Part shown: positions 39,101 through 42,100 of the stretch, in pieces | Layout of the letters: every line of letters begins with the position of its first letter | Position numbering within the stretch: position 1 is the stretch's first letter | Made by a program: the position numbers and the translations under genes | Assembly: GCF_963853765.1 (NCBI RefSeq) | Contig: NC_088856.1 | Location: forward strand, 10,478,001 to 10,542,000 | DNA: 64,000 bases | Source of the DNA: Magallana gigas | Lineage: Eukaryota | Reading direction: 5' to 3' | Notes under the pieces: generated by a model | What the model was told of the DNA's origin: nothing | Databases searched by the model: none | The model's input: the letters and a program-made list of their open reading frames with translations, nothing else

Positions 39101-42100
39101 CCAATAATACTTGAGTTGAATAGCACGGTATGTTCGTTCAAATCCGAAGTGTGCTCCTCCAGCAAGACTGTCATGATAGGAGCGTATGACGTCCTCTCTG
39201 AGGCATCGAGGAACCGCTAGTTGTTTCAGATGGTTGTTTGGATGGCGTGCCCTTTTAGATCTTGGCTGATAGTAATGGTATAAGACGTCATCAAGAAACA
39301 CATAGAAGTTCGACTCGCTAAGAAGTCGATCTCGGTTTTTCTTGTCCTCTGGAAGCTCTTTGTTTTTAAAGTAATTGTACAAAGCTTCGAAATCTGGACA
39401 ACTGCTTTGAAGTTCATCAATGGAAGTTGTATCTACTTGGTGAACTGTATCTACATCTATGGTTGTTGGAAATGGTCGTTGATAGTCGGTGTAAAAGAAG
39501 GTTGCTTGAGTAGATTTTCCTTCAGTTACAGGAGCAAAACATTGGACATCAGGTGATGGAATAATGTCTTCTGGTTCTAGGGCTTGACTGCTTGTTTCAG
39601 GATATGTACGTCTGGACAAAGCATCTGCAACTTCATTTTTCTTTCCTGCTTTGAATAATATTTCGTATGAATATCCTTGGAGTAGTACTGCCCATCTTGC
39701 AAGACGTCCTGTTGACTGTTTAACATTATGGAGCCATTTTAGAGCAGCATGGTCTGTATAAATTTTGAATGGGCGTCCAGCTAAGTAAACATGGTAGGTT
39801 TTTATCCCTTCGATAATGGCGAGTCCTTCACGTTCTGAGATTGGATATTTTCTCTCATGTCTGTTTAGAGAACGTCCACCATACGCGATGACTCTTTCTC
39901 GTCCATTTATGTCTTTTTGCCCAAGAATGTATCCTATGGCTGTTCCAGATGCATCTGTAGTCAGGGTAAACTGCCGTGTGTGGTCTGGGTAGGCCAATAC
40001 AGGTGGTGTGGTTAAGGCAGTTTTTAGTCGGTCAAAGGCAGTCTGGCATTTGTCTGTCCATAAGAATTCCTCGTCTTTGGAGAGCAATACTGTGAGTGGG
40101 CTTGTAATTTTACTGTAACCTTTCACAAATCTTCTGTAATAATTACAAAGTCCCAGAAATGATCTTAGCTCTTTTTGGTTCTTTGGAGTGGGAAATGATT
40201 GGACAGCATCAGTTTTTGACACATCTGCTTTAATACCATCTTTTGTCAAAACATGTCCAAGGTATTTCACCTCTGGAAGAGCGAAGTAACATTTACTTGG
40301 TTTCAGTGTAAGGCCAGCTGATTGGAGTCGTCTGAAGATTTCATCTAGGTGTTTAAGATGGTCCTTAAAGGAGTTGGAGAAGACAAGGATGTCATCAACA
40401 TACACCAGGCATGTCTTCCAATTGAGTCCTCTTAGAACGTGAGTCATCAGCGCTTGGAAGCTGGCAGGTGCGTTTACGAGACCAAAGGGCATCCTCTTCC
40501 ATTGGTACACACCAGTGGGGGTTACAAAGGCAGATTTGTGTTTGGTTTCTTCATCCATGGGTATTTGCCAGAATCCTGAAGCAAGATCCAAGGTGGAGAA
40601 AAATTTAGCCTGTGTGGTACCGATAGTGTCAAACACATCCTCTAGACGAGGCAGAGGGAAAGTAAATTGCTTGGTGACTGCATTGAGTTTTCGGTAGTCC
40701 ACAGCGAAGCGAAGTTGGCCGTTCTTTTTCTTCACCATGACAACAGGGCTTTGCCACATGGAGTCGGATTCCTCAATTATGTCAGTGTCTAGCATTTCTT
40801 GGAGTTGGCGATTCATTTCGGCATTTGTTTGAGGTGACTGTCTATAGAACCTTTGCCGAATTGGTAACGCATCACCGGTTTCTATCCTGTGTGGTTGTGT
40901 ATTGGCTTGGCCAAGTTCTTTTAAATCAGTTGCAAACACAGAACGGTGATTATTTAGAAATGTCAGAAGTAACTGTTTTTGTTCATCTGATAGGTCAGCA
41001 TTGTTGAGGTCAAAGTTCAGTGGTTCATTACTTGTATTAGGAGAGATGGTCTGGTTATCTTCAGAAATCTCCATGGTGAACACAGTGGCTGGATCGACGA
41101 TTGTTGCTGATGCGATCACTGTAGTTGCATTGATTCTGACTCGTTTTGTTGTTGGGTTGATGACTTGAATAAAGGCTTTGTTGTCTTTAGTGTCAACTAT
41201 ACATTTAGCACCTGCAAGTCGCAGTGATGGTAATTTTGGGTTTGGTTCAAGAAGTACACATGAATCTTTGGGCACATTTGATAGGAACACTGGAAGTAAA
41301 GTTACAGACTGTTTTGGAATTATGGTAAATTTTGAAACTCGTGCAAGTCCAGTGTTGGTGTCGATGGCATATGCTGTATCTTCTGAGTCACGCACATAAA
41401 GAGTGTTGTTTTCTGCATTGAAAATTCCATCATTTGCTTGAAGAAAGTCCAATCCAAGAATTAGAGGTTGGTGAAAGGATTGAAACACATGGAATTTATG
41501 GTTAATGATGGGTCCATTGAATGACACAGGAAGAGTTATAGCACCAAGGCTTGCATGTCGTTCACCTCCAACAGCGACTGCATCTTTAATGTTGGAAGTA
41601 TTTAGTTGGTCTCGGGTAATACCAAGTTTTGTTAGGAGTTGAGCACTAATACAGGAAATACTTGCACCGGTGTCTACCAAAGCTCTGAAATGTCTTCTGT
41701 AAATAGTCACATTGACTGTATTCTTTTCGACTGGGATGATGAGGTTGACATTTCTTGACGATGGAGATGTTGAATGTCGTTTTGATGGAGGGTTTTGAGT
41801 TTTGTTAGCACTAGTTGGTAACCGTTTGCTAGTTGAGGGTTTGGACTGGGAAGAGGAAGCATTAGTAGTGGAATGGTGGTTAGGGTTGTGGTTAGTGTGA
41901 TGCTCAGAGTGATGCTGCCTATCCTTTTTGAGGATAGGCGCGAATCCCTATCTTCGTAAAGAGTGGTTATGTTGTTGTTTGAAGGAATTTTTGTTGTGAG
42001 GTTTGGTGTTTGTGAAAGGTTTAGTGCACATGCGGCTAAAGTGGTGAAAGTTTTTACAGTTGTAACATCTAGTGTTAAATGCAGGGCATGAACTTCTAAT

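Follow-up and report, generated by a model that had tools for sequence, protein, structure and literature searches.

A UAG codon between gag and pol, followed by an 8-nt spacer and a stem, likely constitutes a programmed stop-codon readthrough signal across an env-bearing lineage of Ty3/gypsy elements. Judging from sequence comparison, we place the probability of this reading at roughly 0.87. The signal was noticed in an element on the minus strand of the 64-kb stretch of Magallana gigas DNA analysed here (the window). An earlier note on this DNA had proposed that readthrough of the stop yields a Gag-Pol fusion some 1,980 residues long, and the layout, conservation and covariation described below all point to such a product.

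The window element and its gag-pol junction

The window contains a young gag-pol-env Ty3/gypsy element with a chromodomain and an F-type env (all coordinates refer to the minus strand). Its 5' LTR (TATCA...TGATA; 45209-43600) and 3' LTR (34700-33088) are about 1.6 kb long and 99.75% identical, and the internal region is bounded by a 12-nt primer-binding site, TGGTGCAGAGAT (43596-43585), and a polypurine tract (34710-34702). gag (43570-41951) encodes a Retrotrans_gag domain and spans 540 codons from its first ATG at 43570, or 560 codons from stop to stop, with a zinc knuckle 39 codons upstream of the UAG. Four or five 33-nt tandem units at 42342-42506 encode an Arg/Asp-rich repeat upstream of the knuckle. 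pol (41947-37625) comprises 1,440 codons in which Pfam recognises protease, RT, RNase H, integrase and chromodomain. The env-like ORF3 (37504-34979; 841 codons from stop to stop) belongs to the Pfam Baculo_F family (E 3.9e-11).

LTRs, primer-binding site, polypurine tract, the order PR-RT-RH-INT and a Ty3-like RT together mark a Ty3/gypsy (Metaviridae) element. Compared with solved structures, the RT-RNase H region is best matched by Ty3 RT (300 bits, E 8e-89), with retroviral RTs reaching at most 148 bits (E 4e-42 or weaker) and the 'p80' RTs, which we take to be MLV-type, 113 bits. Membership of the Retroviridae was rejected because the RT is Ty3-like by these matches and not of retroviral type. 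Sequencing runs that contain the element carry the label oyster metagenome, and the nearest named protein relatives are from Pinctada, at 63-64% identity.

A single TAG (41950-41948) closes gag, and the same frame remains open through the protease to the pol stop at 37627-37625, just as the earlier note had read it. Its description of the signal is likewise borne out. The stop is followed by an 8-nt spacer, GGATTCGC (41947-41940), and, from position +9, by a perfect predicted stem of 9 bp, a candidate RNA stimulator whose 5' arm GCCTATCCT (41939-41931) and 3' arm AGGATAGGC (41925-41917) enclose a CAAAA loop. The folding z-score of positions +1 to +38 is -5.5 against 200 shuffles. The protease motif lies at pol codon 92 and the first Met of pol at codon 292. 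With the UAG decoded, the frame from the ATG at 43570 would encode a Gag-Pol of 1,981 codons.

The 5' LTR contains an intron of 691 nt with GT-AG ends (44336-43646, on the U5 side) that is removed in contigs of three of four RNA runs. In one run, three reads mark a poly(A) site near 44758. Most of U5 would be missing from spliced RNA, suggesting that mRNA and genome form distinct pools. An 86-nt repeat occurs twice within the LTR (43629-43711 and 44713-44798), one copy holding the splice acceptor and the other the poly(A) region. A second LTR element of 2.06 kb (33084-31020), with identical 476-nt LTRs and one ORF of 349 codons but lacking pol, follows the main element head to tail, connected to its 3' LTR through AGT, and has the same TATCA...TGATA termini and a similar polypurine tract. 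A single AATA target-site duplication brackets both (45213-45210 and 31019-31016), so the two seem to have been inserted as one unit. The 2.06-kb partner is absent from two other copies examined.

Conservation of the stop, spacer and stem

Stop, spacer and stem are identical in all six close copies of the element; a seventh, matching at 68%, has decayed and no longer contains the stop. The UAG and stem are also kept across RT lineages that are 56-87% identical. A private nonsense mutation, one of the readings the earlier note had asked to be checked against other copies and related families, is thereby rejected.

Sixty further loci were fetched out of 150 RT hits, chosen by RT score at one or two per family and regardless of their junctions. 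Together with the window, 25 of the 61 loci gave an env hit, in a test that detects only envs resembling that of the window. A zinc knuckle is readable in 22 of these 25, and gag terminates in TAG in all 22. The protease follows in frame without a further stop at 19 of the 22 junctions, and in the remaining three (L059, L069 and L070) the signal is intact and the damage lies further downstream. Three env-bearing loci (L060, L067 and L075) have no readable gag end. The 36 env-negative loci comprise 21 with a single ORF or from such a family, eight with pol in the -1 frame, four without gag and three damaged representatives of the env clade, among them L081 with the complete signal. On a quick RT tree of 58 of the 61 rows (L059, L060 and L111 were left out as short), the UAG label requires three changes, compared with 16.1 when labels are shuffled, and all fall within one clade of support 100.

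The eight loci with pol in the -1 frame (L086-L089, L091, L098, L103 and L114) belong to more distant gypsy families. In six of them TAG also ends gag, with a hairpin directly after it in several of the eight, so a gag-terminal UAG is by itself not telling. Three (L086, L087 and L089) have extra ORFs of 318-768 codons downstream of pol with no match to the window env. The RT clade of the window element also includes four young LTR elements in multiple copies (L062, L104, L063 and L084) whose pol ORF of about 1,580-1,680 codons begins soon after the primer-binding site with no gag ORF before it; their Gag may be supplied in trans.

A pattern derived from the junctions gave 29 matches in the genome, compared with seven for a reversed control, and all 29 lie at gag-protease junctions, four of them assigned by position only and the pattern having been built from these same junctions. 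A stricter pattern had no match in viral contigs and 12 in metagenome contigs, of which five are gag-UAG-pol junctions of other elements; the other seven are not retroelement junctions and were rejected. Because their gene calls begin at a downstream Met, only four of 73 protein relatives show the junction peptide signature, one of them spurious, and none has a zinc knuckle upstream of the protease.

A contiguous stem of at least 8 bp with its partner within 60 nt starts at +9 at 19 of the 22 junctions, whereas only 22 of the 1,197 remaining TAG triplets in these loci are followed by one; five of the 22 junctions were chosen by a stem-containing pattern, and without them the count is 14 of 17. 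This difference and the folding z-score argue that the signal is not due to chance. Counted by lineage within this genome, 16 of 17 have a stem of at least 8 bp that begins exactly at +9 when the partner may lie within 400 nt, and in 14 of 16 the longest local stem begins there. The segment from +1 to +50 ranks first or second in stability against 175 other segments around it in 14 of 16 lineages. Loops range from 3 to about 190 nt and are 3-7 nt in most. The longest belong to L110, where a 14-bp stem opens at +9 and its 3' arm reaches to +208 (arms 172 nt apart), and to its relative L148/L149, with a 13-bp stem ending at +220 (arms about 185 nt apart); both loops are A/U-rich coding sequence, and one two-sided pair change separates the two stems. 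There are two counterpoints: the stem from +9 in L061 is interrupted, and in L075 pol is open behind a degenerate signal.

The spacer is also constrained: 15 of 16 lineages have G at +1, 15 of 16 have C at +6, and all 16 have a purine at +3. The third codon positions +6, +9, +12 and +15 are each common to 12-13 of 13 lineages, a degree of sharing attained by six of 437 RT/RNase H columns, while among 35 invariant four-fold columns the highest value is at most 9 of 13. Despite these shared third positions, the residues specified by codons two and three after the stop differ among lineages, which argues that the constraint acts on the RNA.

Covariation, which the earlier note had put forward as a check, is present. 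In an alignment of 19 rows, 184 of 190 cells of the stem are paired (96.8%, compared with 90.0% on shuffling), and 13 cells have two-sided pair changes as opposed to 3.4; none of 500 shuffles attains either value. Five of the rows were picked with a stem-containing pattern, and because the lineages are related the cells are non-independent events. Sliding the partner strand lowers pairing to 28-49%. The two-sided changes fall in two of the ten pairs, a count of pairs that 408 of 500 shuffles attain, while three basal pairs never vary and five vary by wobble. An H-type pseudoknot was also considered and found no support, as complementarity between loop and downstream sequence beat shuffles at none of the 19 junctions (lowest fraction 0.15).

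Proposed readthrough and other possible routes to Pol

We propose that most ribosomes would terminate at the UAG to produce Gag, while the smaller share would decode the stop as an amino acid and carry on into pol, yielding Gag-Pol. The stem presumably forms on the mRNA and, beginning at +9, would sit at the ribosomal mRNA entry and slow termination, in the manner reported for the MLV and alphavirus signals; it would thereby set the ratio of Gag to Gag-Pol. Published stimulators of readthrough begin 8-12 nt past the stop, a distance at which action on the mRNA entry channel is possible (PMC3159437, PMC13517186); here and below, statements on published work refer to the accessible parts of the sources cited. 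Programmed readthrough is the best reading of the junction because the spacing is fixed at 8 nt, pol is in frame and stop and stem are lost jointly. Contigs of four RNA-type runs span the junction unspliced and with no change among the differences listed, contigs being a form of data that drops rare forms, so that a spliced or edited RNA of low abundance may exist.

Pol might instead be translated from a spliced RNA, with UAG|G doubling as the 3' splice site and the stem regulating its use, which we regard as very unlikely. The consensus of splice acceptors is YAG|G, to which UAG|G conforms, and the element does splice, as its LTR intron demonstrates. There is precedent in copia, whose Gag-Pol is controlled via splicing (PMC2194720). 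The junctions, however, have no pyrimidine tract, the mean pyrimidine fraction upstream of the 22 junctions being 0.49 compared with 0.81 at the real LTR acceptor, and splicing would need neither a frame shared by gag and pol nor UAG over CAG. The earlier note had held that a spliced pol RNA would speak against readthrough; no joint at the junction was seen in four contig runs or four raw-read runs, although the RNA data are weak, with a raw-read depth of at most 0.33 there. One joint, 37628-42849, from one contig of one run, was set aside as it is not GT-AG.

Equally improbable is separate translation of pol by reinitiation, an internal entry site or an internal promoter, with the stem serving that purpose. 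An AUG precedes the protease motif at 13 of 19 junctions, and a minor promoter lies at the junction of Tca2 (PMC2194720). The remaining six junctions, that of the window included, lack any AUG from the stop to the protease motif, and the first Met of the window's pol comes 200 codons past the motif; a non-AUG start may be envisaged. Pol made on its own would also require a different route into the particle.

The stop itself could be bypassed by A-to-I editing of the UAG or by ribosome hopping, an explanation to which we give slightly less credit again. Of 22 local folds, 11 give the A of the UAG a pairing probability above 0.7, but ten give it one below 0.35, and no change at 41949 is among the differences listed for the four contig runs. 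That the stop lies outside the conserved stem speaks against editing. Least probable is that the stem has another role, such as packaging or dimerisation, and the stop leaks at a basal level only: retroelement RNAs do carry structures of this kind, but the distance from stop to stem is fixed at 8 nt whereas flanks and loops do not align, and the stem decays where the stop has been lost.

Relation to known signals and to the envelope

The probable readthrough signal at this junction invites comparison with the gammaretroviruses. As in Moloney MLV, the UAG of this env-bearing element lies in frame between the zinc knuckle and the protease DTG motif, the window hexamer is UAGGGA, the spacer is 8 nt and the first pair is G9-C. 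The MLV signal is of type III, with UAG-GGA, an 8-nt spacer and an H-type pseudoknot (PMC13517186, PMC3159437). Unlike the purine-rich MLV spacer (G1, G2, G5, U6, C7, A8), GGAUUCGC has four purines in eight positions and matches at G1 and G2 only (PMC13517186). The oyster element further differs in its simple stem without support for a pseudoknot, its Ty3-like RT, its chromodomain integrase and its F-type env. The label 'gammaretrovirus-like' given by the earlier note is apt where UAG-G, the spacing of 8 nt and the stem from G9 are concerned, and fails for the pseudoknot and the purine-rich spacer. As far as sequence can tell, the junction would work like the MLV signal but, with no support for a pseudoknot, a spacer that is not purine-rich and a host element outside the retroviruses, is not a member of the gammaretroviral type III class.

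In-frame stops between gag and pol occur in other LTR retrotransposons. Dictyostelium Skipper is a chromodomain Ty3/gypsy element with one such stop, and a 2003 survey (Gao et al.) reportedly lists a few elements with in-frame stops, one of them from silkworm. According to a review, the 2003 survey places pol in the -1 frame in 28 of 51 animal elements (PMC5009743). The fission-yeast Ty3/gypsy chromoviruses Tj1, Tcry1 and Tosmo1-3 have an in-frame gag stop in the context GAA-UGA-CU, and transposition of Tj1 requires it (PMC4600332, bioRxiv 10.1101/2022.12.06.519325). The earlier note needs correcting in this respect, as in-frame gag stops with UGA were already published for these chromoviruses. 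They share with the oyster element a chromodomain and one in-frame stop between gag and pol, and differ in using UGA, where the oyster junction has UAG-G and a covarying stem in an env-bearing animal lineage; the accessible text on the yeast elements describes no stem and mentions no env. Their GAA-UGA-CU context is not found here. The Ty1/copia element Tca2 of Candida has an in-frame UGA, an 8-nt spacer and a predicted downstream structure (PMC2194720). It resembles the oyster junction in these respects and differs in its UGA, its copia affiliation and the lack of reported covariation across families in the accessible text (PMC2194720). In a yeast reporter, readthrough from the Tca2 junction alone was undetectable (PMC2194720), a warning that a layout of this kind may fail in such an assay. 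The extended 3' stems of alphaviruses and Virgaviridae are of 10-14 bp, begin 8-12 nt past the stop and have arms up to about 150 nt apart; the stems of L110 and L148 match this architecture, which in those RNA viruses mostly follows UGA (PMC3159437).

Among animal elements, Chary and Hayashi described a chromodomain-bearing 'ancient errantivirus' clade of Cnidaria, Mollusca and Annelida (PMC13524379). The window element resembles it in its gag-pol-env structure, F-type env, C-terminal chromodomain and bivalve host, and the reverse complement of its primer-binding site is the 12-nt primer-binding site of the oyster element Mollusca_Bivalvia_Cari_errantivirus_2 (PMC13524379 supplement 1). It fits this clade by features and by the primer-binding-site match, not by placement on a tree. 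The accessible main text of that paper does not mention readthrough, frameshift or translation (PMC13524379), and available text on Troyka, Tor and rotifer elements has no passage on readthrough. A 2026 review of readthrough in animal viruses mentions neither 'retrotransposon' nor 'gypsy', and the literature outside subscription journals and Repbase yielded no description of this signal for this errantivirus lineage. What appears to be new is the combination of UAG, 8-nt spacer and stem across the lineage; gag-stop-pol readthrough layouts were already known in fungal gypsy and copia elements.

The stop also appears to be connected with env. The closest sisters of L110/L148 (L065, L105, L068 and L153) have no env and a single ORF, with AAG (lysine) at the position of the stop, and what survives in them of the spacer and 5' arm is a relic that has no pairing partner. 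Given this relic, the stop was probably lost in these sisters rather than gained in their relatives. The association of env with UAG holds in every readable case and is not statistically shown, since it comprises two independent contrasts, both concordant (p 0.5). Tentatively, and with less than even odds, we suggest that enveloped Ty3/gypsy elements of marine invertebrates may have arrived independently at the gammaretroviral geometry (UAG-G, 8 nt, stem from G9), with the leaky stop tied to env such that loss of env would lead to the stop being dropped and gag and pol being fused. If this is true, a large excess of Gag would be needed only by budding, infectious particles, hence the fusion after env loss, and the lineage would form a natural series of stimulators around one conserved core, from a hairpin with a 3-nt loop to a long-range stem spanning 190 nt.

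Readthrough of gag-pol at a structured UAG signal is a textbook property of gammaretroviruses, and would here be found in an invertebrate errantivirus lineage. That lineage would provide an independent test of what a stimulator needs, with fixed spacing, an invariant GCC base and no pseudoknot. Annotation is liable to mistake intact elements of this kind for broken ones or to split them into separate genes for gag and pol. The junction also offers a testable link between control of the ratio of Gag to Pol and possession of an envelope.
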